A stretch of DNA of 64,000 nucleotides from Nitrospirota bacterium (GCA_040758355.1 JBFLWF010000005.1:32001-96000); one strand, 5' to 3'; positions 19,365-63,068 are shown, numbered from the stretch's first letter. The notes: a model not told the origin generated them from the letters alone. Numbers and translations: made by a program.

Positions 19365-19452
19365 AAGTAATTAAGTCATTAAGTTATTAAGTTATTGATA
19401 ACCAAGAAATCGACAATCCAATTACTCATTTACCCATTTACTTAATAACTTA
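19365..19452. repeat. Inverted pair of 8-bp tandem arrays between mlaE and mlaF
   Basis: aagtaatt aagtcatt aagttatt aagttatt ... caattact catttacc catttact taataact. Confidence 0.8.
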
Positions 19453-20220
19453 CAACAATACCGAGCCTAAGAAGTAATCCCATATAAGAATTAATACAGA
19501 AGACATGACAACCGCCTCTGTGGTTGCTTTGCTGACGCCTTCTGCTCCGTACCCCGTATAAAAACCTTTATAGCAGCATACCCATGAGACAATAACTCCA
19601 AAACTGATGGACTTGTATATTCCCTGCCTTATATCTTCCATATCGACAAAAACCTCCATCTGGGAGAAATAAGTCCCCTCGCTCATTCCTAAAAGTTTTA
19701 CTGCAACGGCATAACCACCGTATATGCCGATTACATCGAAAATAGCTGCAAGCAAGGGGAAAACCATTATTGCAGCAACCATATTTGGAACGATCAGATA
19801 CCTCATTGGATTCAGAGCCATTGCAGTAAGAGCATCGATCTGCTCGCTGATCCTCATTATGCCAATCTCGGCAGTAAGAGCAGAGCCTGCCCTTCCTGTG
19901 ACCATAAGGGCAGAAAGCACGGGACCGAGCTCCCTTATAAGACTTAAGGCTATGGCAGGACCTAATAATGCCTCGGAGCCGAATTTTCTTAAGGTATAAA
20001 ATAACTGAAGGGCAAGTACCATGCCTGTGAATGAGCCTGTAAGAAGGATTATCGCCATGGACTTGTTTCCGAAAAACCTAATCTGCTTCAGAAGCAAGCC
20101 AAACTTAAAGGGAGGAACAAAAATAAAATAAAAGGCATTTACCATGAATGTGGACATATGTCCCATTCTCCTGATGACAGAGAGTGCCCATGAGCCCAAT
20201 ATCCTTAATAATTTTTCCAT
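19450..20220 (-). CDS. mlaE: MlaE permease
   Basis: RELGPVL..LMVTGRAGSA, MRISEQIDAL, GAEGVSKATT. Confidence 0.94.
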   Translation of the reverse strand: MEKLLRILGSWALSVIRRMGHMSTFMVNAFYFIFVPPFKFGLLLKQIRFFGNKSMAIILLTGSFTGMVLALQLFYTLRKFGSEALLGPAIALSLIRELGPVLSALMVTGRAGSALTAEIGIMRISEQIDALTAMALNPMRYLIVPNMVAAIMVFPLLAAIFDVIGIYGGYAVAVKLLGMSEGTYFSQMEVFVDMEDIRQGIYKSISFGVIVSWVCCYKGFYTGYGAEGVSKATTEAVVMSSVLILIWDYFLGSVLL

Positions 20221-20236
20221 ATAAAAGCTTTATCTA

Positions 20237-20441
20237 AATTCTAATTTAGAAAATATATGTCAGGTACGGCGAAAAGACTTTAAACTCCGCACTTGTATTA
20301 ACATCTCTCCTGTATCCGTAATCTACAACATTGAATACTTGTTGGATAATGCAATTATAATCTTTTATAATACACTTGAACTAACACTTTTTAAAGTCTT
20401 CGAGCCGTGCCTGACATATATAATAACCGCTCAATTTAGCC
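20237..20441 (-). mobile_element. ~200-bp inverted-repeat element, copy B
   Basis: TATATGTCAGGTACGGCGAAAAGACTTTAAA...TTTAAAGTCTTCGAGCCGTGCCTGACATATA...GCTCAATTTAGCC. Confidence 0.88.
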
Positions 20442-20445
20442 TTTA

Positions 20446-20474
20446 ATAATAAAAAATGCCTGTAGTGTTGTCAA
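20446..20474 (-). promoter_or_regulatory. Sigma70 promoter of mla operon
   Basis: TTGACA-17nt-TATTAT. Confidence 0.7.
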
Positions 20475-21347
20475 TTAATTTTGCTTTAAAACCGTTACTT
20501 TTTCGCCTTTGTTGATATCAAAGAGCCTTGAAGCGCTATCCATATTAACAAAGAACTCTAAATGGCCGGAACTATTGATGAGGCAGTAAAGGCTGTTGTC
20601 AGACGCCTGAGAGTAGTTTTTTACAGTCCGGACAATTTTACCTTTTATTTCCACCGAAAATTTTTCGCCCAATCCCTGCAAATCGCTTTTTCTGATATTG
20701 GTAATTACATTCCCAAATGTGTCTACATAAATAATTTCCCCAGAAATCTTATCCCCTTCAACCTTCGGCAACGGAACTTCAAACCTCTTAAAGTCGTCAA
20801 TTGTGCATCCGAATGCTTCTAATGCAATCCCCTTCGATAGCCATGCAGCAACAGGGGCAAATACATCCCTCCCCTGAAAAGTCGGACTGTCTATAGCCCA
20901 CAAGGGGGACATTGTCCCCCTTGTGAAAACCCCCTTTAAAGCATGGTTCCCAAAAAATCTCCAGATTTTTTGCGGTGTTGCCTCTGTTATTTGAATAACC
21001 TTTAATTTTTCTGAAAAAGACATTACATAAGAGAAAATCCCGTTATCAGGACCTACGAAATAGTAACCGTCTGCCTCAATGATGATAGGCCTTCTTTCAG
21101 AGCCGACCCCAGGGTCAACGACTGCAATATGAATGGTTTCTGACGGAAAATATTTATAACTGGAGCCAATGATGAATGCACATTCTTCTATCTTATGCGG
21201 CTCTATTCCGTGGGTTATATCAACAAGAGTTACAGAGGGGTTTATGGATAAGATAACCCCCTTCATCTCGCCGACAAAAGGGTCTTTGTATCCGAAGTCT
21301 GTAGTTAGGGTAATTATTTTATGCCTTAAGGCTTCCGATGATCTCAT
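20475..21347 (-). CDS. SAM hydroxide adenosyltransferase / chlorinase-fluorinase family (DUF62) with in-frame insertion
   Basis: [38 protein letters not shown]. Confidence 0.92.
20893..20982. mobile_element. Double-hairpin palindromic insert inside the DUF62 gene
   Basis: Perfect 13-bp arms CACAAGGGGGACA-T-TGTCCCCCTTGTG (20899-20925) and 10-bp arms CAAAAAATCT-CC-AGATTTTTTG (20951-20972); boundaries approximate. Confidence 0.65.
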
Positions 21348-22260
21348 TTATATCAGACAGCCCTTCCTCTATCAGAAACTTTTCAAGCCCTTCTATTATT
21401 TCGATAGTCGCAGTTGGATTTATGAAATTTGCAGTACCGACAGCAACAGCCCTTGCACCTGCTATCAAAAATTCGAGGGCATCATTGGCAGCCATTATCC
21501 CTCCCATGCCTATAATGGGTATCTTTACTGCCTTATACACCTCCCATACCATCCTCACTGCTATTGGCCTTACAGCAGGACCTGAAAGCCCGCCTGTGTT
21601 ATTTGCAAGCACCGGCCTCCGTTTTTTCACATCCACGACCATACCGGTTATGGTATTTATCAGAGATATCGCATCAGCGCCTGCGTTTTCCGCTACTTTT
21701 GCCGTAAGACCGATGTCCGTAACATTGGGTGAAAGCTTGACTATCAGGGGAAGATCGGTCGTTTTCCTCACAGCAGTTACAACATGCTCCATTGTTTTAG
21801 GATCTGTTCCGAAGACTATCCATCCTGCCTGTTTATTCGGGCATGATATATTCATCTCAAGGGCATGAACACCCTCTGCATTGCTCAGCACCTCTGCTGC
21901 ATGAATGTATTCATCTATGCTGTCTCCAAAGAAATTTGCAATGACAGGGGTATTGAATTGCCTTAAAAAGGGGAGTTTATCTTTTATAAACGCCTTAACA
22001 CCTATATTTTGAAGTCCAATGGCATTGAGCATTCCTGCAGGTGTTTCCACAATTCTCGGCGTTGGATTGCCTTGCCTCGGTGTGATGGAAAGTCCTTTAA
22101 CAACAATCGCTCCGAGCCTATTCAAATCAAGAAACTCTGAATATTCCTCTCCATATCCGAATGTGCCTGATGCGGTCATCACAGGATTCTTAAGCTTTAA
22201 TCCCGCGATATCTACCGATAAGTTCGGAGTTCTGAGTTCGGAGTTTGGAGTTATTCCCAT
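21319..22260 (-). CDS. pyrD: Dihydroorotate dehydrogenase B, catalytic subunit
   Basis: [39 protein letters not shown]. Confidence 0.95.
22221..22252 (-). repeat. 7-bp tandem array at pyrD N-terminus
   Basis: Plus strand agttcgg agttctg agttcgg agtttgg; encodes [10 protein letters not shown]. Confidence 0.8.
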
Positions 22261-23018
22261 ATAATATCCTTTATGTCAAATACAGGTCCTTCTTTGCAAA
22301 CCCTTTTATTGCCTGAAACAGTTTTGATAACACAGCCAAGGCATGCACCTACACCGCATGCCATGTGTTCTTCCAAGGAAACATAACACTTTATATCTTT
22401 GCCTGCAACAACTTTAGAGAGTTCTCTCAACATCGGTGTTGGGCCGCAAGCGTAAAGAGGTAATGGGTAATGGGTAATGGGTAATGAGTTAAAAAACTTC
22501 ATTAAAGAATCTGTTATTAATCCCTTTTCCCCTTCAGAGCCGTCATCTGTAGTTATAAATGATTCTTTTGATAGGGCCTTTGCTTCATTTAGCATTACCA
22601 GTTCTTCCTTGTTCCTCGCACCATAGAAAAGATGGGCCTTGTTTTTAAATCTCGCCAGAAGATGCAATAATGAGGCAATCCCGATGCCGCCTGCAAGGGC
22701 AATGAAATCGCCATGGGGTTCTGGATAACTGTTTCCAAGTGGACCGATTGCATTAATAATATCTCCGCTTTTAAGGTGCGAAAGCGATAGTGTCCCTTTG
22801 CCCCTTATCCTGTAAAGAAAGCTCAGCGAATTATCTTCATGTCTGAAAATACTAAAGGGCCGTTTTAAAAGCGGGTCGTAGGTATCGCCAGCCTGAAGCA
22901 TATAGAATTGGCCCGGTTGAGGAATGTCTATGTCCGATAATGGACTGAGATTTAATAACCTGAAGTGTTTGTTTAAAGAGATGTTATCGACTGTCTTTGC
23001 TTTGAAGTATTTAGACAA
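22251..23018 (-). CDS. pyrK: Dihydroorotate dehydrogenase electron transfer subunit
   Basis: [26 protein letters not shown]...CKEGPVF. Confidence 0.95.
22459..22486 (-). repeat. Perfect 7-bp tandem array (CATTACC)x4 inside pyrK
   Basis: Plus strand ggtaatg x4; encodes LPITHYPLP. Confidence 0.88.
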
Positions 23019-23484
23019 AGTTAATCTCTGTGATCTCGTATTCTATAGTCCTTGCAGGCGCCTTTACTACTGCGACATCGCCCACCTCTTTTCCAATCAG
23101 TGCCCTTCCTACAGGTGAGCTTATGGAGATCTTTCCGCTTTTTACATTAGCCTCGTCAGGACCTACAAGGGTGAATTCATACTCTGTATCAGCCTCTATA
23201 TCAACAACCTTTACCTTTGCACCAAATGCAATCTTTGACTGGTTTATCCTGGCCGGGTCTATGACATCAGCCATTGCCAGTTTTGCCTGAAGTTCCTGAA
23301 TACGCCCTTCTATAAAAGACTGCCGCTCCTTTGCAGCATGGTATTCCGCATTTTCTGACAGATCGCCATGCGCTCTCGCCTCGGCTATGTCCTGTATGTT
23401 CTTGGGTCTTTCTACCTTTATAAGTCTATCAAGCTCGTCCTTGAGCTTCTGATAGCCTTCGGGTGTCATTGGGACACGATTCAT
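23011..23484 (-). CDS. greA: Transcription elongation factor GreA
   Basis: AHGDLSENAEY, ISISSPVGRAL. Confidence 0.96.
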   Translation of the reverse strand: MNRVPMTPEGYQKLKDELDRLIKVERPKNIQDIAEARAHGDLSENAEYHAAKERQSFIEGRIQELQAKLAMADVIDPARINQSKIAFGAKVKVVDIEADTEYEFTLVGPDEANVKSGKISISSPVGRALIGKEVGDVAVVKAPARTIEYEITEINFV

Positions 23485-23608
23485 TATAGTTACATCCTCC
23501 GCAAACCGTTTAAACTTTCAAACTATTTAAGATTAAGAATAACACTTTCACATCGATTTTTTCAAAACCATAATCCGTAGTCAAGGGAAGCAGGCACGGG
23601 GATTGAAA

Positions 23609-24043
23609 TTACGTCTTTTGTGTCTCTTTTGACAGAGAAGGCACCGGAACCCTGAAGGAATAACGCTCGTCTTCGAGGATTATCTGTGTTGCCTTTAGTT
23701 TGGATATGTTAACAATTATAGGGGCCTTTAAATTTGCATTCAGCCTGTTATCAGCAACATTGAGAATTACAAGGACAATGGTCTCTGCTACATCCGTGAT
23801 CTCAAGGAATTGTTCAACATCGTCCTCTATAGTAAGAGAGTAGTCAGGGAAAAGGCCAAAGGGCTCGGTAACTATAAATGCAATATCGGGATCATCCACT
23901 GCGTGAAGCCACTTTATAGGGTCTTTATAGTCCAGAAGTATGTACCTTTTCAGATTGGTAAATCCAGGGATTCCCAATGGGAAATTAATAATCTTGGCAT
24001 CTTCTATTTCTATTTCCCCGAATCTTGTCGTATTTATTTTCAT
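23609..24043 (-). CDS. fliW: Flagellar assembly factor FliW
   Basis: TTRFGEIEI, FPLGIPGF, ANLKAPI; next to csrA; start uncertain. Confidence 0.92.
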   Translation of the reverse strand: MKINTTRFGEIEIEDAKIINFPLGIPGFTNLKRYILLDYKDPIKWLHAVDDPDIAFIVTEPFGLFPDYSLTIEDDVEQFLEITDVAETIVLVILNVADNRLNANLKAPIIVNISKLKATQIILEDERYSFRVPVPSLSKETQKT

Positions 24044-24061
24044 CTTCACCCCGGACAATTG

Positions 24062-24289
24062 TTAAGTATTTTTTATTTCAAGAAAATCCTTAAGTTTATC
24101 CATATCCAATTTTGCCGATTCCACATTCAACTGCTTCAATTTTTCGTAAAGTTCTTCTCTGTAGATGGGAAGCTCGCGGGGCGCTTCGATTCCAAGTTTT
24201 ACAAAGCCATTACCGATCTCGACAATTTTAATTTTTATATTGTCTCCGATGTTTATTGTCTGATTGGCTTTTCGTGTTAGAACAAGCAT
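24062..24289 (-). CDS. csrA: Carbon storage regulator
   Basis: MLVLTRK...VKLGIEAP...IYREE. Confidence 0.95.
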   Translation of the reverse strand: MLVLTRKANQTINIGDNIKIKIVEIGNGFVKLGIEAPRELPIYREELYEKLKQLNVESAKLDMDKLKDFLEIKNT

Positions 24290-24308
24290 TTTATCCTTAT
24301 GTTCCGGC

Positions 24309-26069: not shown

Positions 26070-26076
26070 AATTTTC

Positions 26077-26157
26077 AAGTAGTTAAGTATTTAAGTAGTT
26101 AAGTATTTAAGGGAAAGAATTTCTAACCCCTTAACTACTTAACACCTTGACTACTTG
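26077..26157. repeat. Inverted pair of 8-bp tandem arrays between flgK and flgL
   Basis: aagtagtt aagtattt aagtagtt aagtattt ... aacccctt aactactt aacacctt gactactt. Confidence 0.8.
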
Positions 26158-26163
26158 TTACCA

Positions 26164-29744: not shown

Positions 29745-29775
29745 TATAGGTCTTATAAGTCTTATAAGACCTATA
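29745..29775. repeat. 9-bp-period palindromic array in flgM leader
   Basis: TATAGGTCTTAT-AAGTCTT-ATAAGACCTATA, 12-bp perfect arms. Confidence 0.75.
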
Positions 29776-30496: not shown

Positions 30497-31614
30497 ATTA
30501 TCACCAGTTCTGCCTTAAGACTTCCAGATGTCTTTATTGCTTGCAAAATTGCTACCAGATCCTTTGGCGTTACACCCAGCACGTTGAGCGCCTTGACAAG
30601 TTCGCCAATTGTTGTTCCCTTCACCTCTACCAGCGGCGCCTTTTTCTCTTCTGCCTTCATTTCTACCTTTGGAACAACTACTGTTTCTGCTGTTTTAGGC
30701 GCAAAGGGAGGTGGTTGAACTACTTCATATTCAACCTTAATCTCTATGGTTAATCCTCCGTGGGCAAGGGCAATGGGACTGATGGTTACATTGTCGCCTA
30801 TGACAATTGTGCCTGTCCTTTCATTGATAACAACCCTCGCAGGCACATCCACATCAACATTTATGAGTTCTATTTTTGACATCAAATCCACTACCCTGTT
30901 CGCATAGGCATCGGGTACCTTTATGGAGATGACAGAAGGACCCTCGGCCTTGGCAAAGACCCCTCCAAGACCCATATTTATCCTATCCGCAGTCTTTTTG
31001 GCAGTTGTGATATCCGGAACGGTCAATAAGAGATCAAGCCTGTTTTTGTCGTTTAATTGCACCGGCACCTCTTTCTCCACAATTGCGCCATTCGGAACCG
31101 AACCTGTATTAGGATGGTTCTTAATCGCCTGCGCACCTGCCCCCCCAGCCAGAAATCCGCCGATAGATACAGGGCCCTGTGCAACTGCATAGACATTTCC
31201 ATCAGGACCCTTCAAAGGCGCCATTAAAAGAGTTCCTCCCTGAAGACTCTTTGCATCTCCGATGGACGATACATGCACATCCACCTTTGATCCCGGCTTT
31301 ACCATTGTGGGCAGTTTTGCAGTAACTATTACTGCTGCTATATTCTTTGTCTTTCCCTTTATATCAGCAGCATTGACACTGATCCCCATTCTGGTGAGCA
31401 TGTTGGCAAAAGGCTGGAATATGTATGTTCCGTCCTTATCGCCTGTCCCGTTGAGTCCGACAACAAGACCGTATCCTATAAGCTCATTTTCCCTTATGCC
31501 GGAAAATGCGGCGATGTCCTTTATACGCTCAGCAAATGCCGTAATGCGTAATGCGTGAAGCGTTAAGAGTAAAAATACAATAAATACAAAATTAACGATT
31601 CTCTTTCCTTTCAC
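30493..31614 (-). CDS. flgI: Flagellar P-ring protein
   Basis: ERIKDIA, LIGYGLVVGLNGTGD, SLQGGTLL, NERTGTIV; GTG 31614 follows GGAGG. Confidence 0.95.
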   Translation of the reverse strand: MKGKRIVNFVFIVFLLLTLHALRITAFAERIKDIAAFSGIRENELIGYGLVVGLNGTGDKDGTYIFQPFANMLTRMGISVNAADIKGKTKNIAAVIVTAKLPTMVKPGSKVDVHVSSIGDAKSLQGGTLLMAPLKGPDGNVYAVAQGPVSIGGFLAGGAGAQAIKNHPNTGSVPNGAIVEKEVPVQLNDKNRLDLLLTVPDITTAKKTADRINMGLGGVFAKAEGPSVISIKVPDAYANRVVDLMSKIELINVDVDVPARVVINERTGTIVIGDNVTISPIALAHGGLTIEIKVEYEVVQPPPFAPKTAETVVVPKVEMKAEEKKAPLVEVKGTTIGELVKALNVLGVTPKDLVAILQAIKTSGSLKAELVIM

Positions 31615-31666
31615 TATTTCCTCCAATCAACATATTCTTATTACTCATTACGCATCACCCATTACG
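31540..31666. repeat. Inverted pair of 7-bp arrays straddling the flgI start
   Basis: cgtaatg cgtaatg cgtgaag cgttaag (31540-31567) versus ttattac tcattac gcatcac ccattac g (31638-31666). Confidence 0.75.
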
Positions 31667-31670: not shown

Positions 31671-32447
31671 TTAAAACGGCCACACCTTATCCAAAAACCT
31701 CACCAGCCAGCCCTGCGATTGCTTGTCGTCCAGAACGCCGTCGCCCACAAGGTATATCTGGGCATCAGCCACATACTGCGATGAAATCGTATTGTTCGGG
31801 GCTATGTCATCGGGTCTGACGATACCCCTCAATACCAGTATCTCCTTTTCATTGTTCACTACGACCTCTTTCCTCGATTCAAGCACCAAATTTGAATTAG
31901 GCAAAACCTCCACAACTTTTGCCGTTACAGTTCCCGCAAGCTTGCCTTCCCTTGTTGTATCGCCTTTTCCTTTGAAGTCGGATTCAGCATTTCCTTTAGC
32001 AGACGGAGAAAACACATTCGTGCCTTTATAAAACCCATTCACCATGGGGAGCTTCTGTATGCCAAAGTCCGTATCCATGCCGAAAAAGTTCTCCAATCCA
32101 TAATCACCAGAAGAATCACGGCTCGCATTAGTTGTTGCCTTTTTGGATGCAGTAGACTTTTCGTTAATCAGTATGGTCACAAGGTCATTTACCCTCTTTG
32201 CCCTTCTGTCTTCGAAAAGGGATGCGCTGTCCTTCCATAGAGAACCTTCAGACGAATAAATTTCTTTCTCCTTTGTCTCCACATACCTTGGCGGCATAGG
32301 CGCATTTTTTATATCTCTGGCATCCTTGAGGCCGGAACAACTAATAAGTAGAGTAGACAGTAGACAGTAGACAGTAAACAGTAAAAAAATTTTTAAACTT
32401 TTCCTTTCTGACTGCTGACTGCTAACTGCTGACTGCAGACTTTTCAT
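31671..32447 (-). CDS. flgH: Flagellar L-ring lipoprotein
   Basis: Lipobox LISC, GSLW, LFEDRRA, GIVRPDDI, GWLVRF. Confidence 0.94.
   Translation of the reverse strand: MKSLQSAVSSQQSERKSLKIFLLFTVYCLLSTLLISCSGLKDARDIKNAPMPPRYVETKEKEIYSSEGSLWKDSASLFEDRRAKRVNDLVTILINEKSTASKKATTNASRDSSGDYGLENFFGMDTDFGIQKLPMVNGFYKGTNVFSPSAKGNAESDFKGKGDTTREGKLAGTVTAKVVEVLPNSNLVLESRKEVVVNNEKEILVLRGIVRPDDIAPNNTISSQYVADAQIYLVGDGVLDDKQSQGWLVRFLDKVWPF
32353..32442. repeat. Two 7-bp arrays encoding the FlgH signal peptide
   Basis: gtagaca x3 gtaaaca (FTVYCLLST) and ctgactg ctgactg ctaactg ctgactg (LQSAVSSQQS). Confidence 0.85.
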
Positions 32448-33166
32448 ATCTTCACCCTCACTGTATTCGGTGATATTAAGACCCCGCTTACCTCTTTTTT
32501 AGAGACATCGCACAATACCTTTGCCACACCACCGACCACGGTGTCATTCCTTAATACCCCATGAGTCGATATAACAACATTGCCCCCTTCCACCACAACA
32601 TCCACCTTTTGTCCTCTTTTAATGCTCAGCTGATTTGTCAGGTGATCGGCCCTTATAATAACTCCCTGTCCAATATTGTTTTTAAGTATCTTTTTTTCAA
32701 CATCATTTCTGCCCAGTACAGCAGCAACAGGCAGTTTTGAGCTTTTTTGCTTTACAGCATAAAAATCATCCGCTGTTAGTACAGTCCCCTTTGTAAGGGG
32801 TCTTGAGGAAATAAAAACATCCACAAGAACATCATAAGACGCTTCAACAATTATATTTTTTCTACTCATTCTCTTATCTCTAAGGCCAACCATAAAATTC
32901 ACTTTATTACGGCCAGCATATCCATTCATCGCAACAGTATTGATTTTATAGCCCTCTAAATTTTCTAAAGCATCCATCCCTTCAAGCACCCTCAATCCAG
33001 TAATTTCTACGTCCTCGGAAATTGCATTTCTTAGTTCCTTCACTATTGCCTGCTTGATATTGCCCATTAAGTCTTGCTGACCGGCAAGTACGATGCCGGC
33101 AAACAGTAAGCAGACCAATGGAGTAATGGAGTATTGGAGTGTTGTTTTAAAATTTCTGACTTTCAT
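32444..33166 (-). CDS. flgA: P-ring formation chaperone
   Basis: SAF-like domain, IKRGQKV, position between flgG and flgH. Confidence 0.85.
   Translation of the reverse strand: MKVRNFKTTLQYSITPLVCLLFAGIVLAGQQDLMGNIKQAIVKELRNAISEDVEITGLRVLEGMDALENLEGYKINTVAMNGYAGRNKVNFMVGLRDKRMSRKNIIVEASYDVLVDVFISSRPLTKGTVLTADDFYAVKQKSSKLPVAAVLGRNDVEKKILKNNIGQGVIIRADHLTNQLSIKRGQKVDVVVEGGNVVISTHGVLRNDTVVGGVAKVLCDVSKKEVSGVLISPNTVRVKI
33116..33144 (-). repeat. 8-bp array in FlgA signal peptide
   Basis: caatggag taatggag tattggag tgttg; encodes TLQYSITPL. Confidence 0.7.
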
Positions 33167-34741: not shown

Positions 34742-34758
34742 AGCAATATTAATGCCAG
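34742..34758 (-). promoter_or_regulatory. Sigma54 promoter for flgFGAHI
   Basis: CTGGCATTAATATTGCT = GG-N10-GC. Confidence 0.8.
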
Positions 34759-34760
34759 AT

Positions 34761-34869
34761 TAGCTGATAGCTGATGGCTGATAGCTCATAGCGGGAAAAC
34801 TACAACTAAAAGCCCATGAAATATCAATGTGACTTTAACTATGAGCCATGAGCTATGAACTATGAGCTA
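34761..34869. repeat. Inverted pair of 7-bp arrays upstream of the sigma54 promoter
   Basis: tagctga tagctga tggctga tagctca ... ctatgag ccatgag ctatgaa ctatgag. Confidence 0.82.
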
Positions 34870-34872
34870 CTT

Positions 34873-34911
34873 CGGTGGGAAATTTTTTCCTGCGGTAGGA
34901 AAATTATACCT
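34873..34911. promoter_or_regulatory. Candidate tandem enhancer sites for a sigma54 activator
   Basis: CGGTGGGAAATTTTTTCCT and CGGTAGGAAAATTATACCT, 20 bp apart, ~115-150 bp upstream of the -24 element. Confidence 0.45.
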
Positions 34912-35086
34912 CTATATCTATGCCCTCTTTTGTCTCTTCTTTGGTCTTTTTGGGAAGCTCTTTTTCTTCTTTGGTTGTTTTTTTAGCCTGTCTCACGACT
35001 CTTGTTTTAGGAAAGACATGGGCGACCCCTATGCTCCGTATGCCCGAGATCCTGTAAGGTTCTCTTATGCCTTCATCTCTTGCCAT
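34904..35086 (-). CDS. Small basic protein ending in GIDIEV, sigma28-driven
   Basis: 60-aa ORF from ATG 35086 directly after a sigma28 promoter; start uncertain. Confidence 0.6.
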   Translation of the reverse strand: MARDEGIREPYRISGIRSIGVAHVFPKTRVVRQAKKTTKEEKELPKKTKEETKEGIDIEV

Positions 35087-35129: not shown

Positions 35130-35203
35130 AAGTCATTAAGTCAATGAGTAATTGAGTCATTGAGAATTTTTAATAGCTTATTGACTTATTTACTTAATGA
35201 CTT
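35130..35203. repeat. Inverted pair of 8-bp arrays after the HDOD gene
   Basis: aagtcatt aagtcaat gagtaatt gagtcatt ... tattgact tatttact taatgact. Confidence 0.8.
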
Positions 35204-52670: not shown

Positions 52671-52705
52671 AGAATACAAGATGCAGGATACAAGATACAA
52701 GGTAT
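52671..52705. repeat. 7-bp tandem array abutting element copy C
   Basis: agaatac aagatgc aggatac aagatac aaggtat. Confidence 0.75.
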
Positions 52706-52714
52706 CCACCACAT

Positions 52715-52910
52715 AAATTGAGCAATTCTTATTTTAGAATTATGTGTCAGGTGCTGCGAAAAGACTTTAAACCACGCACTTGTATTAACTTTTATCTTGT
52801 ATCCGTCATCTACTACATTGGATACTCGATGGTTATTGCATTTATTCTCTCTCATATGCACTTGAAATAGCACTTTTTAAAGGCTTTGAGCAGTGCCTGA
52901 CACATAAAAT
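52715..52910 (-). mobile_element. ~200-bp inverted-repeat element, copy C
   Basis: AAATTGAGCAATTC...TATGTGTCAGGTGCTGCGAAAAGAC...TTTGAGCAGTGCCTGACACATA. Confidence 0.88.
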
Positions 52911-52916
52911 TAAGCA

Positions 52917-53657
52917 TCACCTTCTAAATTTCTCCATCCTGCTTTTCAGCTTAACAAGGACCTTGCCGTGCAGTTGACAGACCCTCGACTCGCTGATATC
53001 CAGAACCCTGCCTATTTCCTTCATTGTAAGTTCTTCAAAATAATAAAGTGTTATCACAAGCCTCTCTTTCTCAGGAAGTTCGTCTATGGCGCTGCCGAGG
53101 GCAGACCTTAACTCCTTTAGATTCAACTCATCCAGCATGTCCCTCTCATCCTCTTTTGATATACATTCGAGAATATCGAGCGATTCGCCGTCCTTGCTTA
53201 CTCCTAAATCCTCCAGACTTATCATGTTCATGGTATTGGCTATGGATAAGGTCTTGTAGAGCTCGTCGAGGGTTATGTTCAGCCTTTCCGCAACCTCTTC
53301 ATCCGTGGCAATCCGGTTAAAGCTCTTTTCGAGTTCGGAATAGGCTTTTCTAACCGCTTCCAGCTTCTTTCGTGCATCCTTTGATGCCCACTGCATGGAG
53401 CGGATCTCATCGATTATGGCGCCCCTTATTCTAAAGTCTGCAAAGGTGCTGAGCGTTGCGTTCATGGAGGGGTCATACCGCTCTATTGCCTCTAAAAGTC
53501 CTACTATTCCTGCCGATACTAAATCTTCAATGCTTAATTCCGGAGGGAGGCAAAAGGCATATTTGCTCGCATAATATTTTACCCTCGGCAAAAACTGCTC
53601 TATTATCCTCTCTTTCTCTTTTTCGGATACTTTTCGTTTTTTTGATATTTTTCCCAT
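52917..53657 (-). CDS. fliA: Flagellar sigma factor 28
   Basis: DLVSAGIVGL, RIRGAIIDEIR, LYYFEELTMKEIG, SESRVCQLH. Confidence 0.96.
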   Translation of the reverse strand: MGKISKKRKVSEKEKERIIEQFLPRVKYYASKYAFCLPPELSIEDLVSAGIVGLLEAIERYDPSMNATLSTFADFRIRGAIIDEIRSMQWASKDARKKLEAVRKAYSELEKSFNRIATDEEVAERLNITLDELYKTLSIANTMNMISLEDLGVSKDGESLDILECISKEDERDMLDELNLKELRSALGSAIDELPEKERLVITLYYFEELTMKEIGRVLDISESRVCQLHGKVLVKLKSRMEKFRR

Positions 53658-53665
53658 TGATTAAT

Positions 53666-53887
53666 TATAACCAAATTGAGCAATTCTGATTTAGAAAATA
53701 TATGTCAGGTGCGGCGAAAAGACTTTAAACCCCGCACTTGTATTAACATTTATCTTGTATCCGTCATTTACAACATCGGATACTTGTTGGGTGATGCACT
53801 TATAATCTCCTGTAATACACTTGAAATAGCACTTTTTAAAGTCTTTGAGCCGTGCCTGACATATAAAATCGCTCAATTCAGGCTATA
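53666..53887 (-). mobile_element. 222-bp inverted-repeat element, copy D (most intact)
   Basis: Outer IR TATAACCAAATTGAGC / GCTCAATTCAGGCTATA; inner IR TATATGTCAGG...AAAGACTTTAAA / TTTAAAGTCTTT...CCTGACATATA. Confidence 0.9.
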
Positions 53888-54715: not shown

Positions 54716-55761
54716 TAAACACCTCCGACAATCAGACCTGCAAGAAATTCAGGAGTAGGAATCCTTATGTCATCAGGGACATCCGGACCTGTAGCAACAA
54801 AGGATAATGGACGGCTGGTAAGGAGTGAAAGGTTATAAAGGCTTCCATACTGTGTCGCCATATCCAGCTTTGTAAAACCTATGGAATCGATCATATCGGG
54901 ATTGCACCTCTGCCATGCCTTTAGCGCTGCCTGCGTATCCATGGAGGCATCCATAAGAAAGCATTTCTTCATCGGGAACCCTGAAGGAAATATCTCCCTT
55001 ATATCCTCCAGTATTTCTTTATACTCATATCCAGGCGTATCGATGAGGATGGGACCTCTTCCCATCTCACGGTATACGATCTTCGGCAGGTCACTCACAT
55101 TTCTTATAACCCTCAACGGGCACTTGATCTGTTTTGAAAGCTCCTTCATGTATGCCATAGAGCCTATCCTGTTGTCATCGAGGGAGATGAGATTTACCGG
55201 TTTCTTTTTCGATGCAAGCAAATGGGCCACCTTTGACATGGTCGTGGTTTTGCCGACGCCGGGAGGGCCGAGGAATATAAGCCCGCTCTCCTCTGCAGGC
55301 AGCATACCCTGTATCTTTAAATCATTCTTTATAACGCCCTTGAGACTGTCCAGAGAGTCCTGCGCCCTTTCGAGCAAGATTATGGCGAACTGTGTATCAA
55401 CGCCCTGTTTCACGAGGAGATTGAACAATCCCTTTTTATCCTTTCCGATCCTGAGGGCAGGCACTATTGGCCGCAGTGTTTCCTTTAAGAAGCCCATCTC
55501 ATCCCTTAGTCCCCTTATCTCTTTCAGTATCTCCTCGACATCTGAAAATCCCGCCTTTACAGCAGGATTAATGTTTACTGCAATATCCCCCATAGAATCG
55601 TCTATGGCAGCAGTGACTTCAACGGCATCTTTGTTGATGATCCCGAAAGGCCCTGTCTTTACAGACTTGCTCGAAAGTATTATTGCGTCAGGCCCGAGCT
55701 CCTTCTTCACCGTCTCAAGGGCTTCTTTAAAACTACGACCAACGAATTTCTTGATTTTCAT
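54715..55761 (-). CDS. flhF: SRP-family GTPase FlhF
   Basis: MKIKKF...VKKELGPDAII, GPPGVGKTT, DTPG, TKLD. Confidence 0.92.
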   Translation of the reverse strand: MKIKKFVGRSFKEALETVKKELGPDAIILSSKSVKTGPFGIINKDAVEVTAAIDDSMGDIAVNINPAVKAGFSDVEEILKEIRGLRDEMGFLKETLRPIVPALRIGKDKKGLFNLLVKQGVDTQFAIILLERAQDSLDSLKGVIKNDLKIQGMLPAEESGLIFLGPPGVGKTTTMSKVAHLLASKKKPVNLISLDDNRIGSMAYMKELSKQIKCPLRVIRNVSDLPKIVYREMGRGPILIDTPGYEYKEILEDIREIFPSGFPMKKCFLMDASMDTQAALKAWQRCNPDMIDSIGFTKLDMATQYGSLYNLSLLTSRPLSFVATGPDVPDDIRIPTPEFLAGLIVGGV

Positions 55762-55782
55762 CTATCTGCCCCCCTCTTTAAT

Positions 55783-55851
55783 AGTCATTAAGCTATTAAG
55801 TCATTGAGTTATTAAGTTATTAATTACTATTTACTTAATTACTTATTTACT
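55783..55851. repeat. Inverted pair of 8-bp arrays between flhA and flhF
   Basis: agtcatta agctatta agtcattg agttatta agttatta / ttacttaa ttacttat ttact. Confidence 0.8.
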
Positions 55852-57892: not shown

Positions 57893-58952
57893 GGCCTGCC
57901 TTTTTGTTTTTCAGTTTATACACATTCGCAAGTATCGTTGCTACTGCCCTGTACAGTGTTTCGGGAATCTCCTGTCCAATGTTCAGCTTAAATAAAGTCC
58001 TTGCAAGGGGCTTGTCCTCAAAAACAGGCACGCCGCTTTTTGCAGCAATTTCCTTTATCTTCTCCGCAACAATGTTTGCTCCCTTTGCAACGATTGTCGG
58101 AGCACCCATCTTTGACGAGTCATACTTTAACGCAACAGCAAAATGCGTGGGGTTCGTTATGACCACGTCGGCCTTTGGAACCTCCTGCATCATCCTCTTC
58201 CGTGCCATCTCCCTCTGAAGGCTCTTTATCCGCGCCTTAACACGGGGATCGCCCTCCACCTCTTTGTACTCTTCCTTCACTTCCTGTTTGGTCATCCTCA
58301 AGTTGCGTTCAAACTGCCATCTCTGGTAGGCAAAATCCGCAACTGCAAAAACAGTCAGGACAACAGCCGAGATAAGTAAAAGCTTTCTTATCTGGTTGAA
58401 TGAAAAGCCCATAATTGACTGTATGTCCATATCTACAAGCAGGGGGAGATTTATCAGTTCCTTTTTTATAAGGAGATAAATAATAAGGCCGAGGACAATA
58501 ACCTTCAAGACGCCCTTTAAGGTTTCGAAAATTGTATTAAGACTGAAGAATTTCTTTATCCCCTGAATAGGATTGATCTTGTTAATATCCGGACTCAAAG
58601 GAGCAGGCGAGAGCAAAAAGCCTGTCTGTAAAAAGTGCACAATCACGATAACAAAAAGCATAAGCCCCAGGAAGGGGGCCATTATCAATGCAACATGTAC
58701 CGTGTCTGTCTTGAATACATCCATAAATGAAACCTCGTTCAAAGAAATCTCAAAACCCCTTTTCAACGATGTCTTCATATATGTAAGCAGAGAGGTGAAC
58801 ATAAAGCCGCCGAAGGAGAGATACAAAAACACCACCCACAGGGGCATAATTCCTGTAAGCTCCCTGCTCCTCGGTATTTCGCCCTTTTCCCGTGCCTTTT
58901 GACGCCTTCGGGGCGTCGCTTGTTCCGTTCGCTCTTCAAACTCTTCAGGCAT
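57882..58952 (-). CDS. flhB: Flagellar export switch protein
   Basis: RTEQAT, EGDP, NPTH cleavage motif. Confidence 0.96.
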   Translation of the reverse strand: MPEEFEERTEQATPRRRQKAREKGEIPRSRELTGIMPLWVVFLYLSFGGFMFTSLLTYMKTSLKRGFEISLNEVSFMDVFKTDTVHVALIMAPFLGLMLFVIVIVHFLQTGFLLSPAPLSPDINKINPIQGIKKFFSLNTIFETLKGVLKVIVLGLIIYLLIKKELINLPLLVDMDIQSIMGFSFNQIRKLLLISAVVLTVFAVADFAYQRWQFERNLRMTKQEVKEEYKEVEGDPRVKARIKSLQREMARKRMMQEVPKADVVITNPTHFAVALKYDSSKMGAPTIVAKGANIVAEKIKEIAAKSGVPVFEDKPLARTLFKLNIGQEIPETLYRAVATILANVYKLKNKKAGHAR

Positions 58953-58955
58953 CTG

Positions 58956-59693
58956 TTACCTCGTAAAGACCATTATCGCATCCTTTACATTCATAAAGGC
59001 CTTTGAAACGACCATCAATACAAGTGGCAATGAAAGCGCCATAAAAATAATCCCGCTGGTAATGAGCAGCGGAAAACTTATAAAGAATATATTGGCCTGC
59101 GGCAGCGCCCTCGAAAGAAAGCCCATGGCAAGATTGATCAATACCTGAACAAGAATGACAGGGGCTGCTATTTTAAAGGCCAGCGGAAACAAAATAGAGT
59201 TGAGCTTTATAATGGAATCGAATATCCCTTTGTACTGGATGCTGCTGATATCAAAGCTGCGCGCAATGCCCTCGATGAAATAGTGATGCATATCGAGTAC
59301 GAAAAAAAGCCCCATGGAAATAAATGTGTAAAAAAGGCTCAGGGGTCCGAGCTGTTCGCCAAACATGGGGTTGAAAACAGCAGCCACGCCGATTCCCATC
59401 TCTATGCTCATCCACTGGGCTGCCGTTTCAACAGCGCCGAGGATTATCCTTGCTGTTAAACCTATTGCAGAGCCGATAAAGAACGCCTCAAAAACTGCCC
59501 TTACCGGACTTTCTGTCTTCACATTCGCAACAGGCAGAAGGAGCAGTGTCAGTGCAATGGCAAGCCCTGCCCTAACCATTATTGGTGTCATTCGCGCCCC
59601 GATAAACGGAATGAAAGAGAGGATAACAGCAACCCTTATGAATACGGGGATGAACTTTTCAGCATACGTGTTTATAAGGTTATAAAGCTCCAT
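58956..59693 (-). CDS. fliR: Flagellar export protein
   Basis: Hydrophobic; AAP, RALPQANIF; position. Confidence 0.92.
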   Translation of the reverse strand: MELYNLINTYAEKFIPVFIRVAVILSFIPFIGARMTPIMVRAGLAIALTLLLLPVANVKTESPVRAVFEAFFIGSAIGLTARIILGAVETAAQWMSIEMGIGVAAVFNPMFGEQLGPLSLFYTFISMGLFFVLDMHHYFIEGIARSFDISSIQYKGIFDSIIKLNSILFPLAFKIAAPVILVQVLINLAMGFLSRALPQANIFFISFPLLITSGIIFMALSLPLVLMVVSKAFMNVKDAIMVFTR

Positions 59694-59694
59694 C

Positions 59695-59964
59695 TTACCT
59701 CACATACATTGGTATATTCTCGAATATGCTTCTTGTGAATCCAACCAGCACCTTAACCATCCACGGCAGTGCAACGAGCAGGGTAATGAAAACAGCTATT
59801 ATCTTCGGTACAAAGGTCATTGTCATTTCCTGAAGCTGTGTGATTGCCTGAAAAATACTTATCAGCACTCCGATGATAAGGCTGACCAGCAATACAGGCC
59901 CGCCGACAAGCAATATTGTCTCAAATGTCTGCCTCGATATCTGGTTAAGCAATTCGGTGGTCAT
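59695..59964 (-). CDS. fliQ: Flagellar export protein
   Basis: FQAITQLQEMTMTFVPK. Confidence 0.96.
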   Translation of the reverse strand: MTTELLNQISRQTFETILLVGGPVLLVSLIIGVLISIFQAITQLQEMTMTFVPKIIAVFITLLVALPWMVKVLVGFTRSIFENIPMYVR

Positions 59965-61001
59965 TTAAACCCCCCGATAAGCGAGCCTATCAACAAATCC
60001 CATCCATCAACAAGGACGAACAGAAGCAATTTAAAAGGCATGGAGACCATAATAGGAGGAAGCATCATCATGCCCATCGAGAGGAGCACACTGGCAACAA
60101 CCATATCAATGACTAAAAAGGGCAGGAATATAAGAAAGCCTATCTCAAATGCCTTTTTAAGCTCGCCGATGGCAAAGGCAGGAATAACAACCCTCATCGG
60201 CAGATCCATGGGTGTTGCAGGCCTTTCAGATTTTGACATCTTTAAAAAAAGCGCAAGGTCTTTTTCCCTGGTCTGCTTCAGCATAAATTCCTTCAACGGA
60301 ACTCCTGCCCTGTTAAGGGCTTCTTCCGCATTTATCTCCTTTTTTGTATAAGGCTGGTAGGCATCAGCGTAAATCCTGTCCACAACAGGCGACATGACAA
60401 AGAGGGTAATGAAGAGGGACAGACCAATTATTACCTGCGTGGGAGGAACCTGCGGAGTTCCAAGCGCCTGCCTGAGAAAGGAAAGGACCACAACAATTCT
60501 TGTAAAGCATGTGGTCATGACAAGGATTGCAGGCAGTATGGAGAGCAGTGTGAGGAATAAGAGCAATTCAAGAGGGGTGGTTAAACCAAGGAATCCTCCG
60601 GCAGGCGGAGGAGGCGCCGGTGCAGCAAAGGATAAATCAGGCAACAGGCACGAGGCTATAGGCAATAGGGCAAAGTAAAAAAATTTTCTTTTTATAAAAT
60701 TTTTTATACCGAGTGGCTGGTGGCTGGTAATCGCTGGCTGCTGTTTCATCGCTTCTTCCACATCCGATGGGTTAGGCTTGCTCAGAATGGATATGCTTTC
60801 ATCAGCAATTCCCAGAACAAGGTATTCCTTTAAAACCTTAACAATTGCAACTCCCTTTTTAGGGCCAAAAGGCTGATATTGGACAATCTCGATCAATCCT
60901 TTATTGGGTAAAACCCTCTGTTTCAGAAATCTGAGGAGTAAATACAGACCGCCGAGGACAATCAGCAGTGCAACTGTAACCTTAATTAACTCAAAGCCCA
61001 A
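59961..61001 (-). CDS. fliP: FliO-FliP in one reading frame
   Basis: N-terminal FliO-like TM plus GPKKGVAIVKV..EYLVLG; C-terminal FliP (TCFTRIVVVL, FLPFLVIDMVV, PFKLLLFVLVDGW). Confidence 0.9.
   Translation of the reverse strand: MGFELIKVTVALLIVLGGLYLLLRFLKQRVLPNKGLIEIVQYQPFGPKKGVAIVKVLKEYLVLGIADESISILSKPNPSDVEEAMKQQPAITSHQPLGIKNFIKRKFFYFALLPIASCLLPDLSFAAPAPPPPAGGFLGLTTPLELLLFLTLLSILPAILVMTTCFTRIVVVLSFLRQALGTPQVPPTQVIIGLSLFITLFVMSPVVDRIYADAYQPYTKKEINAEEALNRAGVPLKEFMLKQTREKDLALFLKMSKSERPATPMDLPMRVVIPAFAIGELKKAFEIGFLIFLPFLVIDMVVASVLLSMGMMMLPPIMVSMPFKLLLFVLVDGWDLLIGSLIGGFK
60639..60742 (-). repeat. 7-bp arrays in FliO-FliP junction / FliP signal region
   Basis: aggcaac aggcacg aggctat aggcaat (LLPIASCLLP) and tggctgg tggctgg ... 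tggctgc (QQPAITSHQP). Confidence 0.7.
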
Positions 61002-61007
61002 ATTAAC

Positions 61008-61047
61008 CCTCCATGTTTCATTACTCCATCACTCCAACACTCCATTA
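61008..61047. repeat. 8-bp array starting at the fliN stop codon
   Basis: tttcatta ctccatca ctccaaca ctccatta. Confidence 0.75.
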
Positions 61048-61374
61048 CCTAAGTTGCCTCACTCTTTCAGTCGGGCTTATAATGTCAGTGAGTCTGATGC
61101 CGAACTTCTCATTGACAACAACAACCTCTCCTCTGCCGATCAGTCTCTCGTTCACGTATACTTCCATGGGCTCTCCTGCCAGTTTTTCGAGGGCGATAAC
61201 AGATCCCTGACCGAGCTGAAGCAGTTCCTGAACGAGAATCTTTGTCCTGCCGATAACAACGGTCAGCTCAAGGGGGACATCAAGGATAAAATTTATATCC
61301 CTCTGGGAAACCTGAGGCGATTGTGCCTCTCCCTGAAATTCCTGTACATCCAAATTTTTTACTTCATCTGCCAT
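61045..61374 (-). CDS. fliN: Flagellar motor switch protein
   Basis: ILDVPLELTV, GEVVVVNEKFGIRLTDI. Confidence 0.95.
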   Translation of the reverse strand: MADEVKNLDVQEFQGEAQSPQVSQRDINFILDVPLELTVVIGRTKILVQELLQLGQGSVIALEKLAGEPMEVYVNERLIGRGEVVVVNEKFGIRLTDIISPTERVRQLR

Positions 61375-61402
61375 TTTCATTCCTCCTTACGCCTTTTACG
61401 CC

Positions 61403-62365
61403 TTATACAACCTTTGTTATTTTTAATGCATACGAGCCTTTATAAACCCCGAATCTTCCCTTAAACTTCTGGGCTCCCTCGACAAGTACGTTGATATCTT
61501 CGTCCACCCTCTGACCGAGGATTATTACATCCGATACCTTCATATCAAGAACATCCTGAACCGTGACCCTTGTATCTCCAAGTCTGCCTGTTACGGTTAC
61601 AGGAATCTCTTTAAGCCTTTCCTTTAATCTCTCAAGCCACTTTATGTCCAGTTCATCCCTGTCAGCAGAAAATGCACTGTAAAGTTTTTCTTTTATCGGT
61701 TCTACTGTTCCATATGGTATACAGAGAAATGCCCGACACTGCTTACCTTCGATTTCAAGGACAAATTCGACCTTTATCACCACATCCACAGGGGTAACGA
61801 TGGTAACAAACTGCGGGTTCATCTCGGAGCGCACATACGTGGGTATTACCGGATAGATGGGTTTCCATGCTTCTTCCATGTCATTGAAGAACATCATCAC
61901 CACTTTGTGTATTATCTTCTGCTCTATAGGGGTGAACTCCCTGCCTTCAGGCTTGTAATAGCCCTTGCCTGTGCCGCCGAAGAAAAATTCAATGAGGCTG
62001 AATATCATCGGTGCATCAAACACAAGAAGGCCAAAGCCCCTCAGTGGCTCCATCCTGAAAACATTTATACTCGATGGAAAAGGAACACCGCGCATGAAGT
62101 CATAGAACTTTGTGATATTGACATTCACATTGGTTACATCAACCATGCGCCTGATCGCTGCAGACAAAGACAGGCGGAAGTTTCTGGCGAGCCTTTCGTT
62201 CGCTATGTCGAGGGAAGGCATTCTCCCCCTGACGATTTTTTCCTGACCTGTAAAGTCATAGGGCTTTATGCCTGAGACCTCTTCTACCTTCTCGGTCTCT
62301 ACAGCGCCTTCTGCTATTCCTTTTAGCAGCGCATCAACTTCTTCTTGCGAAAGAATATCTTCCAT
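61403..62365 (-). CDS. fliM: Flagellar motor switch protein
   Basis: ILSQEEVDALL, YDF, FGG.G, REFTPIE. Confidence 0.96.
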   Translation of the reverse strand: MEDILSQEEVDALLKGIAEGAVETEKVEEVSGIKPYDFTGQEKIVRGRMPSLDIANERLARNFRLSLSAAIRRMVDVTNVNVNITKFYDFMRGVPFPSSINVFRMEPLRGFGLLVFDAPMIFSLIEFFFGGTGKGYYKPEGREFTPIEQKIIHKVVMMFFNDMEEAWKPIYPVIPTYVRSEMNPQFVTIVTPVDVVIKVEFVLEIEGKQCRAFLCIPYGTVEPIKEKLYSAFSADRDELDIKWLERLKERLKEIPVTVTGRLGDTRVTVQDVLDMKVSDVIILGQRVDEDINVLVEGAQKFKGRFGVYKGSYALKITKVV

Positions 62366-62380
62366 TTTACTCCTTGTTAT

Positions 62381-62430
62381 AAGTTAATGAGTCACTCATC
62401 AACTCTTTTACCCATCTACTCATTCACTTT
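62381..62430. repeat. 8-bp array with short inverted partner between fliL and fliM
   Basis: aagttaatgagt / actcatca actctttt acccatct actcattc. Confidence 0.65.
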
Positions 62431-62434
62431 GTTT

Positions 62435-62929
62435 TTACTGCATTACGAAATCCGTAAGATATACATTTTTTACTGAGTTCTCTCCAAGCACCTGGTTAAT
62501 CCTTATATTTATCTCGTCCTTAAGCTGCAGTTTTCCTTCAGGAGAGATCAATGCATCGGATGTCTTGCTTGTAAGAAGCGTAATAATCGCATCCCTTATC
62601 TGAGGGGTCTTTGTTTTTGCCTTTTCCATAACAGCAGGCCCGGTAAGCTCAAGCTGCAAAGATACCTTTAAAAACCTTGTCCCTGTCGGGTCGCTTAGGT
62701 TAACGACAAATGGCTCAAGTGCAAATGTTACTCCTTCTGCAGCCTTTGTCTCTTCAGTCTTTTGTGCCTTATTACCACCTGATTTTGTGAAAAAGAAGAA
62801 TGCACCTGCACCGCCGGCAAGGACAGCAACTGCAATAATGATAATCAAGATCAAATTCTTCCCTTTTTTCTTTTTCGGCTCCTGACCTTCTTCTTCGCCT
62901 TCCAATTTCTCTTCTTTCTCATCAACCAT
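62435..62929 (-). CDS. fliL: Flagellar basal body protein
   Basis: TM, LEPFVVNL, IRDAII, VYLTDFVMQ. Confidence 0.94.
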   Translation of the reverse strand: MVDEKEEKLEGEEEGQEPKKKKGKNLILIIIIAVAVLAGGAGAFFFFTKSGGNKAQKTEETKAAEGVTFALEPFVVNLSDPTGTRFLKVSLQLELTGPAVMEKAKTKTPQIRDAIITLLTSKTSDALISPEGKLQLKDEINIRINQVLGENSVKNVYLTDFVMQ

Positions 62930-62944
62930 AAAAAACCTCCATAT

Positions 62945-63068
62945 TTAAGTAGTTAAGGGGTTAAGTAGTTAAGGGGTTAAGGGTAAAGTTCCATTAACTA
63001 CTTAATCCCTTTGCGTCGTGCGCGAAGTGTGGGCGCTCTGACTCACGACGCTCAACGCTTTACGCACA
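62945..63068. repeat. Back-to-back inverted 8-bp and 7-bp arrays in the fliL leader
   Basis: ttaagtag ttaagggg ttaagtag ttaagggg / ttaactac ttaatccc; then tgcgtcg tgcgcga / cgctcaa cgcttta cgcacaa. Confidence 0.75.

Follow-up and report, generated by a model that had tools for sequence, protein, structure and literature searches.

Cyanobacterial short tandemly repeated repetitive (STRR) sequences form a heptamer-repeat class comparable to the arrays considered here, which occur in a 64,000-nt stretch of a Nitrospirota bacterium (GCA_040758355.1 JBFLWF010000005.1:32001-96000, or C5:32001-96000; hereafter the window) and across the 2.77-Mb, 99%-complete genome it comes from (G000). The window holds a flagellar cluster and housekeeping genes, almost all on the minus strand, and tandem arrays of 7-, 8- or 9-nt units, many of them set as inverted pairs. 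These arrays are, with high probability, the footprints of small mobile cassettes that carry repeats as arms. Several described systems resemble parts of this design, as far as the available text of each paper goes. In Coxiella, the intervening sequence (IVS) has heptamer repeats before an S23p/PF05635 open reading frame (ORF) and a stem cut by RNase III (Warrier 2016, PMC4990558); a Xanthomonas homolog of the cargo protein is a pentamer (PMC4990558). Inverted heptamer pairs of the same polarity as ours were reported from Xanthomonas and Nostoc, with 70 cases in Xanthomonas campestris pv. campestris, and are described in the available text as not associated with mobile elements (Rehm 2015, PMC4692102). 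In Beggiatoaceae, a few of the TAACTGA repeats lie in ORFs, and the available text gives no evident mechanism of spread (MacGregor 2015, PMC4679880). In the literature we found only pieces of the design, namely heptamers, inverted pairs, polarity and the IVS stem; a search that left subscription papers and supplements outside its reach found nothing joining arrays to PF05635/PF13366 cassettes outside rRNA, and nothing on site re-use or nesting.

The excess of 7- and 8-bp periodicity and of inverted pairing over background, anticipated by an earlier model-made reading of the window (the sequence-only reading), is pronounced genome-wide. A strict periodicity scan returned 218 arrays of period 7, 72 of period 8 and 5 of period 9, where one block shuffle gave none of any of these periods, and a looser scan returned 598, against 12 in each of two shuffles; the 489 arrays from the looser scan with a score of at least 12 form our working set. 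An inverted partner lay within 1.2 kb of 151 of these 489 (19 under random placement), mostly at 60 bp or less, and the purine-rich arm led in 73 of 82 close pairs. Among the 251 arrays not internal to ORFs, 50 began between -15 and +12 nt of a stop codon with the purine-rich strand as sense, versus only 6 with the pyrimidine-rich strand as sense. Array lengths had medians of 32 nt (period 7, n=329), 35 nt (period 8, n=141) and 31 nt (period 9, n=19); the lower end of the distribution is fixed by the scoring threshold, while the upper end is sharp, with perfect 7-mer arrays peaking at 33 nt (13 of 55) and none beyond 39. Copies per array were 4.6 for 7-mers, 4.4 for 8-mers and 3.4 for 9-mers, and a constant array length fits at least as well as the constant copy number suggested by the pentamer idea.

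With their 7-nt array excess and their inverted pairs whose purine-rich strand follows stops, these arrays have the marks of heptamer long simple sequence repeats (LSSR) and STRR. Like the Xanthomonas/Nostoc and Beggiatoaceae heptamers, they are 7-nt arrays that form inverted pairs, lie in part within ORFs and have a sporadic taxonomy, and in both cases stops are followed by the purine-rich strand and starts are preceded by the pyrimidine-rich one (PMC4692102, PMC4679880). However, the available text of those papers describes one unit per genome and no link to cargo (PMC4692102, PMC4679880), whereas here we find 161 distinct consensus units in one genome, periods of 7-9 (and 6 in relatives), units that match cargo clades, and re-use of sites.

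The cassettes themselves consist of a purine-rich repeat arm, a gene for a four-helix-bundle (or GxxExxY) protein and a pyrimidine-rich repeat arm. In the genome, six genes match PF05635 and one matches PF13366, and by eye all seven stand between inward-facing arrays, each with its own unit; our arm scorer accepted both arms at four of the five PF05635 copies put to it, and at the GxxExxY gene it accepted neither. Across PF05635 loci of this genome and its relatives (n=75), an upstream arm was present at 52, a downstream arm at 63 and both at 46, compared with 5 of 137 control windows. Cargo arms had median lengths of 30.5 and 33 nt, like those of the arrays. Median stems were 37 nt in cargo cassettes (n=65) and 30 nt in arms-only pairs (n=82), about 76-78% paired in both, and mismatches fell in the same phase hardly more often than expected in the former (650 vs about 593) and somewhat more often in the latter (374 vs about 268).

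Units tie the cargo-free arrays to these cassettes. Exact matches to arm units of other genomes' cassettes were found for 77 of 329 G000 7-mers (15.5 expected) and 18 of 141 8-mers (1.7 expected). In a comparison based on pairwise protein identity (n=68), the unit tracked the cargo clade: nearest-neighbour cargo proteins shared a unit in 32%, versus 1% in shuffles, some of the pairs being orthologous loci. The cargo is under purifying selection (dN/dS 0.05-0.25 in pairs with unsaturated synonymous sites), with an open frame of at least 95 codons in 111 of 117 loci, and cassettes neighbour protein genes or a CRISPR array.

The resemblance to ORF-bearing 23S IVS is close: these too have a four-helix-bundle ORF within complementary ends, heptamers before it, a length of about 430 bp and a stem of about 30 bp, according to the available text (PMC4990558). 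Filled alleles carry the PF05635/TIGR02436 ORF that marks an IVS, although the window's own elements carry none, and the complementary ends form the stem of about 30 bp. In contrast to 23S IVS, the cassettes lie in operons, signal-peptide regions, a CRISPR array and coding sequence rather than in rRNA, with the window's sites all in protein operons; furthermore, their cargo is under selection and most copies are cargo-free arms. The system is best read as working like an IVS-type selfish cassette that falls outside the rRNA IVS class by location.

Some individual cassettes are worth recording. A four-helix-bundle cassette (L002:120-660, on G000 C24) lies at the end of an array of repeats that we take, from the repeat-spacer pattern, to be CRISPR-like, and in the sister species G002 a different cassette with a different unit (L118) occupies the corresponding place. 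In G003 one cassette occurs twice at distant loci (L101 and L127; 95% identical over 532 bp), both copies with an internal TAA. A cassette and its downstream gene are 91% identical between members of different families (L102 in G004, L106 in G056; cargo 98%, pS 0.03), a likeness between sequences that suggests that the junction as a whole was transferred recently. Cassettes with a 6-nt unit exist in relatives as well (L117, L121, L122, L133, L145, L275, L282), each of them linked to a cargo clade of its own.

Within this one lineage, the same sites show a series of states, from the bare junction through the full and the half-deleted cassette to a pair of arms, a single arm and an arm swapped for another unit. 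Flagellar regions were compared from two sets of 20 relatives, drawn from 55 and 58 that gave a match. At fliL-fliM, 7 of 20 relatives have a bare gap of 10-19 bp; in G029 the arms enclose an intact four-helix-bundle (PF05635) gene; G009 shows G029's cassette after a deletion, at a 3-nt overlap, that removed most of the gene and some of the 3' arm; others have arms of at least five further units, and a strain about 97% identical (run X3) has 404 other letters at the junction. At flgH-flgI, G011 carries a complete four-helix-bundle cassette: the stop of its gene overlaps the start of flgI, its 3' arm codes for the signal peptide of FlgI, and its 5' arm spans an assembly gap. Cargo between the arms at these two junctions bears out the link to four-helix-bundle and GxxExxY genes that the sequence-only reading had proposed. 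A half-deleted cassette also occurs within G000 (the C20 copy). At the flgE-fliL gap of G004 (L029), roughly the first 20 codons of a four-helix-bundle gene stand just before fliL, as judged by eye.

The remaining junctions give empty alleles. The 69-bp piece at flhA-flhF alters the last flhA codon and supplies a stop, the old stop persisting after the 3' arm; precisely this piece is missing from a strain 97.9% identical (L048) and is also skipped in runs X2, X3 and X5. The flgK-flgL gap is -1 to 3 bp in 11 of 16 relatives and filled in the other 5 by other inserts, each ending in its own ribosome site, while mlaE-mlaF is a gap of 9-12 bp without an element in G002, G019, G022 and G035. At these three junctions no cargo was seen in the loci examined. 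The pyrK-pyrD gap is 2 bp in 7 of 12 relatives, and in relatives the place of the arm at the fliN stop holds other units or bare gaps. Since true empty alleles carry no array, the arrays are footprints and not empty targets; of the proposal of "empty sites or scars", the second half was right and the first wrong. The 5' arm frequently supplies the stop of the upstream gene, and the 3' arm often forms part of the next gene's reading frame, in some cases as signal peptide.

Contrary to the sequence-only reading, arrays are not limited to gene junctions. The 3' arm of its pair at 31540-31666 lies in the region coding for the FlgI signal peptide, and further in-frame or N-terminal arrays in the window, which it had passed over, lie in FlgA, FlgH, PyrK, ValS, NadC, MoeA and LivF. 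Genome-wide, 142 of the 489 arrays (29%) lie more than 70 codons deep in long ORFs with the frame open, a count made approximate, like the other in-ORF counts, by crude ORF calls. Another 52 pyrimidine-strand arrays lie in N-termini, where most read as hydrophobic signal or anchor segments. The FlgH signal has other units in seven relatives and ordinary sequence in twelve. One PyrK loop has been home to four units in total, with different ones in the window, in G001/G002/G019, in G003 and in G022, and no array in G024, G036 and G044. The valS and nadC arrays are missing in all five relatives compared and take the place of native codons; that of valS replaces a native loop with a net change of -12 nt against four relatives and -6 against one. 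Comparison with several relatives thus shows the valS, nadC and flhA elements to be gains. The comEC ORF of this genome (C39 12459-13857) carries several in-frame arrays.

Comparison with the sister species G002 (88-90% identical; 1.15 Mb compared) recovered both flanks for 166 of 412 elements, 60 of them in ORFs. At these 60 sites, G002 has the same unit at 20, a related unit at 6, an unrelated unit at 19 and none at 15, whereas any array at all appeared in only 32 of 1500 random G002 windows (2%). Because unrelated units at 19 of 60 sites far exceed this background, array sites have been overwritten repeatedly by unrelated units. Lengths were equal at 24 sites, and 33 of the other 36 differed by multiples of 3; host sequence was replaced rather than duplicated, with net changes from -51 to +55 nt. 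Target duplications had no fixed length, short duplication-like overlaps being seen at flhA-flhF and at flgK-flgL in G022. Where G002 lacks an array, 16% of 68 junctions had microhomology of at least 4 nt (2% in simulation), and where it has another array, 4% of 76 (2% in simulation).

Such in-frame patches recall Rickettsia palindromic elements, small repeats inserted in frame into unrelated protein genes, which the available text describes as families of about 150 bp with a conserved peptide (PMC10969869). The patches described here are different in being about 33 nt long and periodic, in having many units and a candidate parent cassette, and in replacing host bases. An origin by local polymerase slippage from native sequence, with template switching for the inverted partner and an incidental link to cargo, would agree with what was proposed for the heptamer excess (Mrazek 2007, as summarised in the available text of PMC4679880), and changes of 21 nt (three units), as in moeA, show that slippage acts on existing arrays. 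Yet array length is narrow with an upper limit, the orthologous native sites of valS and nadC show no seed unit, one site can hold unrelated units, units are shared with cargo arms, and the purine-first polarity is fixed. Slippage is a most improbable origin on these grounds, and we concur with the sequence-only reading that in its simple form it fails to explain the layout.

Equally little credit is due to the idea that operon expression is tuned by the pairs, acting as mRNA hairpins or as repeat sites for an oligomeric host protein. Their location directly past stops and ahead of ribosome sites would suit such a role, as would stems of about 30 bp with 4-5 copies per arm, and a translational role was proposed for TAACTGA repeats in the available text of PMC4679880. 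However, near-identical strains lack the element or have unrelated units, 161 distinct units are in use, many single arms lie inside ORFs, and only 28 of 48 cases show better folding of the sense strand. G-U and A-C mismatches on the sense strand are equally frequent (83 vs 78 in 48 oriented pairs; 132 vs 153 in 65 cargo cassettes), and strains can dispense with the elements or carry others in their place, all of which speaks against the periodic mRNA hairpins that had been offered as an alternative. An Rfam search of the window returned no match.

Mobility by an RNA route deserves separate mention. In a generalised form of the 23S IVS, arms would pair, RNase III would cut, and RNA or cDNA would be written back into transcribed genes. 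The heptamers before the Coxiella S23p ORF and the RNase III cut inside its stem (available text of PMC4990558) are consistent with this, and the genome has an RNase III gene. Cassettes are also co-oriented with their neighbours (82 vs 5 upstream, 68 vs 12 downstream), but co-orientation follows from selection for promoterless expression as well. Three of five cargo proteins match the model of Avd (NF033474), the accessory protein of diversity-generating retroelements (DGR), as distant homologs below its cut-off (E 1e-5 to 1e-10); unlike in a DGR, neither a reverse transcriptase nor a template/variable repeat was found in G000, where the search for the former used PF00078. Together with the lack of a G-U excess on the sense strand, this makes an RNA route improbable.

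A different possibility is that every footprint, even in essential genes, was once a full cassette whose cargo, often with one arm and host bases, was deleted later. Half-deleted cassettes do exist (in G009 and the C20 copy of G000), and full cassettes nest in frame within methylase genes of many phyla. In both G014 and G032, a full cassette lies at the same position within an N6/N4 DNA methylase gene, and in G032 the host frame is open through the entire cassette. A GTDB scan with one cargo protein as query, which samples only that clade, gave at least 515 matches; among the best 80, the host frame was open in 54 and arms were scored in 64 (either) or 20 (both), and of the 44 loci with both methylase flanks, 42 had a host frame open across the cassette. 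This nested clade (L267, L296-L375) forms a second reading frame within methylase genes of the N6/N4 and Eco57I types across many phyla, and also within one large protein with Ig domains. An early stop interrupts the cargo ORF of five nested methylase cassettes, four of which keep the host frame open across the tested span.

Nesting of this kind is rare among Nitrospirota, however. Although 142 of 489 arrays lie deep in ORFs, only 2 nested cassettes were found in the phylum, both in methylase. Only 1 of the 111 cassettes in the Nitrospirota panel lacks a stop in the host-type frame, and the other 110 have three or more stops in each alternative frame, so that such cassettes would cut an essential gene. 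Screens for nested cassettes gave 3 candidates among 37 testable loci (two artefacts) and none clear among 17, L267 being found in follow-up; four apparent split genes (L041, L098, L264, L287) were set aside as fusions by chance or matches to paralogs with several domains. Nested methylase cassettes show one way in which coding footprints can arise, but they belong to a special clade, and a full stage behind every footprint seems unlikely.

Our preferred reading combines cassette footprints with replacing, transposase-free entry at the arms, and as a whole we judge it probable. Cassette DNA would be joined to the chromosome by illegitimate, replacing recombination at its arms, often leaving one arm only. 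The donor may arrive single-stranded, by uptake or as a cassette-derived intermediate, and join at short microhomologies, as in SPDIR (short-patch double illegitimate recombination). Often only an arm-sized patch would be integrated, or the cargo would soon be lost by microhomology deletion. Selection would then retain harmless patches, which is to say those after stops, in signal peptides and in tolerant loops with an intact frame, whereas full cassettes would persist only at junctions, in N-termini or where the cargo can be read in the host frame. The putative role of the cargo protein would be to bind its own unit and promote integration, an attractive idea because the Xanthomonas homolog is a pentamer and the arms hold 4-5 units.

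Cargo is PF05635 or PF13366 only, with no transposase as cargo (a transposase acting in trans from elsewhere was not searched for), and copies share no fixed terminal inverted repeats, the 161 units giving ends that differ between copies. A ComEC gene is present. In Acinetobacter baylyi, SPDIR similarly replaces 3 to about 100 bp by heterologous single-stranded DNA at microhomologies, is raised by DNA uptake, is suppressed by RecA, RecJ and ExoX and, in the available text, needs no dedicated recombinase (10.1101/2023.11.22.568220, 10.1101/2024.07.02.601687). However, SPDIR is described there as very rare and sequence-blind, while the arms here are specific and periodic and the events abundant, such that the match is one of outcome only. 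The single-stranded patch step may be correct, although we lean slightly against it.

Several observations weigh against the reading we prefer. Tracking of cargo clades by units is expected from co-inheritance alone and does not demonstrate binding. Four-helix-bundle sequence lies within 150 nt of only 8 of 489 arrays, all of them at known cassettes; with so few cargo remnants, most footprints are not attributable to a cargo individually. Array density is weakly related to cargo count in 16 relatives (rho 0.44, p 0.09), which as kin are not independent, and the sampled loci of three cargo-bearing genomes (G023, G024, G026) hold no arrays. Arms of GxxExxY genes score poorly, with both at 9 or more in 1 of 9. 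The microhomology signal is modest, is absent at array-to-array swaps and could stem from deletions in G002. ComEC is common, being present in 10 of 14 control genomes, and mobility itself is deduced by comparing sequences.

All 12 sites listed by the sequence-only reading were recovered where it had placed them (Table 1), and for nine of its ten inverted pairs no stem in 300 shuffles came up to the observed one; the pair at 63012-63068 is weak, and that at 29745-29775 amounts to one short self-complementary 9-mer block. Stop adjacency was described correctly, the mlaE, flhA and fliN arrays including the stop codon and the HDOD array beginning 4 nt beyond it. The claim that units are unrelated applies to some only, as the 8-mers at 19365, 35130, 55783 and 62381 read as variants of one family. 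The flgM leader has a similar block in G002, G003 and G022 and an 8-mer pair in G006. The pair upstream of flgF (34761..34869) adjoins what is presumably a sigma54-like motif.

Table 1. Repeat elements of the window, with positions counted from its first nucleotide.
Position	Strand	Element	Remarks
3546..3576	+	In-frame 7-mer array within livF	No ortholog recovered for comparison
5540..5568	-	In-frame 7-mer array within moeA	In G004 shorter by 21 nt; in G019 the unit is unrelated
8397..8426	-	In-frame 7-mer array within nadC	Net +21 nt vs five relatives
10437..10461	-	In-frame 7-mer array within valS	Outside 19365..63068
19365..19452	-	Arms-only 8-mer pair, mlaE-mlaF	5' arm opens with mlaE stop codon
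22221..22252	-	Single 7-mer arm before pyrD	Starts at pyrK stop
22459..22486	-	In-frame 7-mer array within pyrK	Peptide around PITHYPLP
26077..26157	-	Arms-only 8-mer pair, flgK-flgL	
29745..29775	.	Short self-complementary 9-mer block, flgM leader	Weak member
31535..31666	-	7-mer pair, flgH-flgI	3' arm read in frame as end of FlgI signal peptide
32352..32441	-	7-mer pair forming FlgH lipoprotein signal peptide	n-region from purine arm; hydrophobic region from pyrimidine arm
33117..33144	-	8-mer arm in FlgA signal-peptide coding region	Run X2 has a replacement here (joint 33080-33157)
34761..34869	-	7-mer pair upstream of flgF	Runs X2, X3 and X4 skip it (joint 34757-34874)
35130..35203	-	8-mer pair	Starts 4 nt past HDOD gene stop
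52671..52704	-	Single 7-mer arm, pyrimidine-rich on sense strand	Directly before ribosome site of HEAT-repeat gene; region replaced in run X2
55783..55851	-	8-mer pair, flhA-flhF (69-bp insert)	Supplies flhA stop
61008..61047	-	Single 8-mer arm	Opens with fliN stop codon; skipped in run X3
62381..62430	-	Degenerate 8-mer pair, fliL-fliM	
62945..63012	-	8-mer pair upstream of fliL	Other array instead in L048; skipped in run X2
63012..63068	-	Degenerate 7-mer pair	Weak; reached by 13/300 shuffles

The window has other features of note. A different multi-copy element of about 140-190 bp lies at 12415-12600, with dozens of copies of 70-86% identity in each of five relatives and no Rfam match; read pile-ups appear also near 20240-20450 and 52700-53880. 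An unlisted 60-codon ORF (34904-35086, minus strand) with a start conserved in relatives lies between the HDOD gene and flgF, and a single ORF (59961-61001, minus strand) matches both FliO and FliP, an apparent fusion.

For the excess of 7-nt repeats in scattered bacteria, prior proposals invoke only slippage or regulation, and a series of states in one lineage makes the origin of heptamer repeats testable: each cargo clade predicts the unit to bind and the patch to deliver. PF05635, a large family without known function, thereby gains a candidate one. The findings also point to a route of protein change: between sister species, non-homologous DNA has rewritten the signals that export FlgA, FlgH and FlgI, as well as loops in ValS, NadC, MoeA and PyrK, which bears on annotation (start calls, low-complexity peptides) and on models of signal-peptide evolution. 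In its widest form, which is possible but doubtful, this would be mobility without transposase or reverse transcriptase, in which each clade of four-helix-bundle pentamers recognises its own 4-5-unit arm and overwrites patches of about 33 nt; it would be the source of heptamer repeats in many phyla and, in lineages such as this one, the main writer of new signal peptides and surface loops of essential proteins, and some clades may have become second reading frames in host genes.

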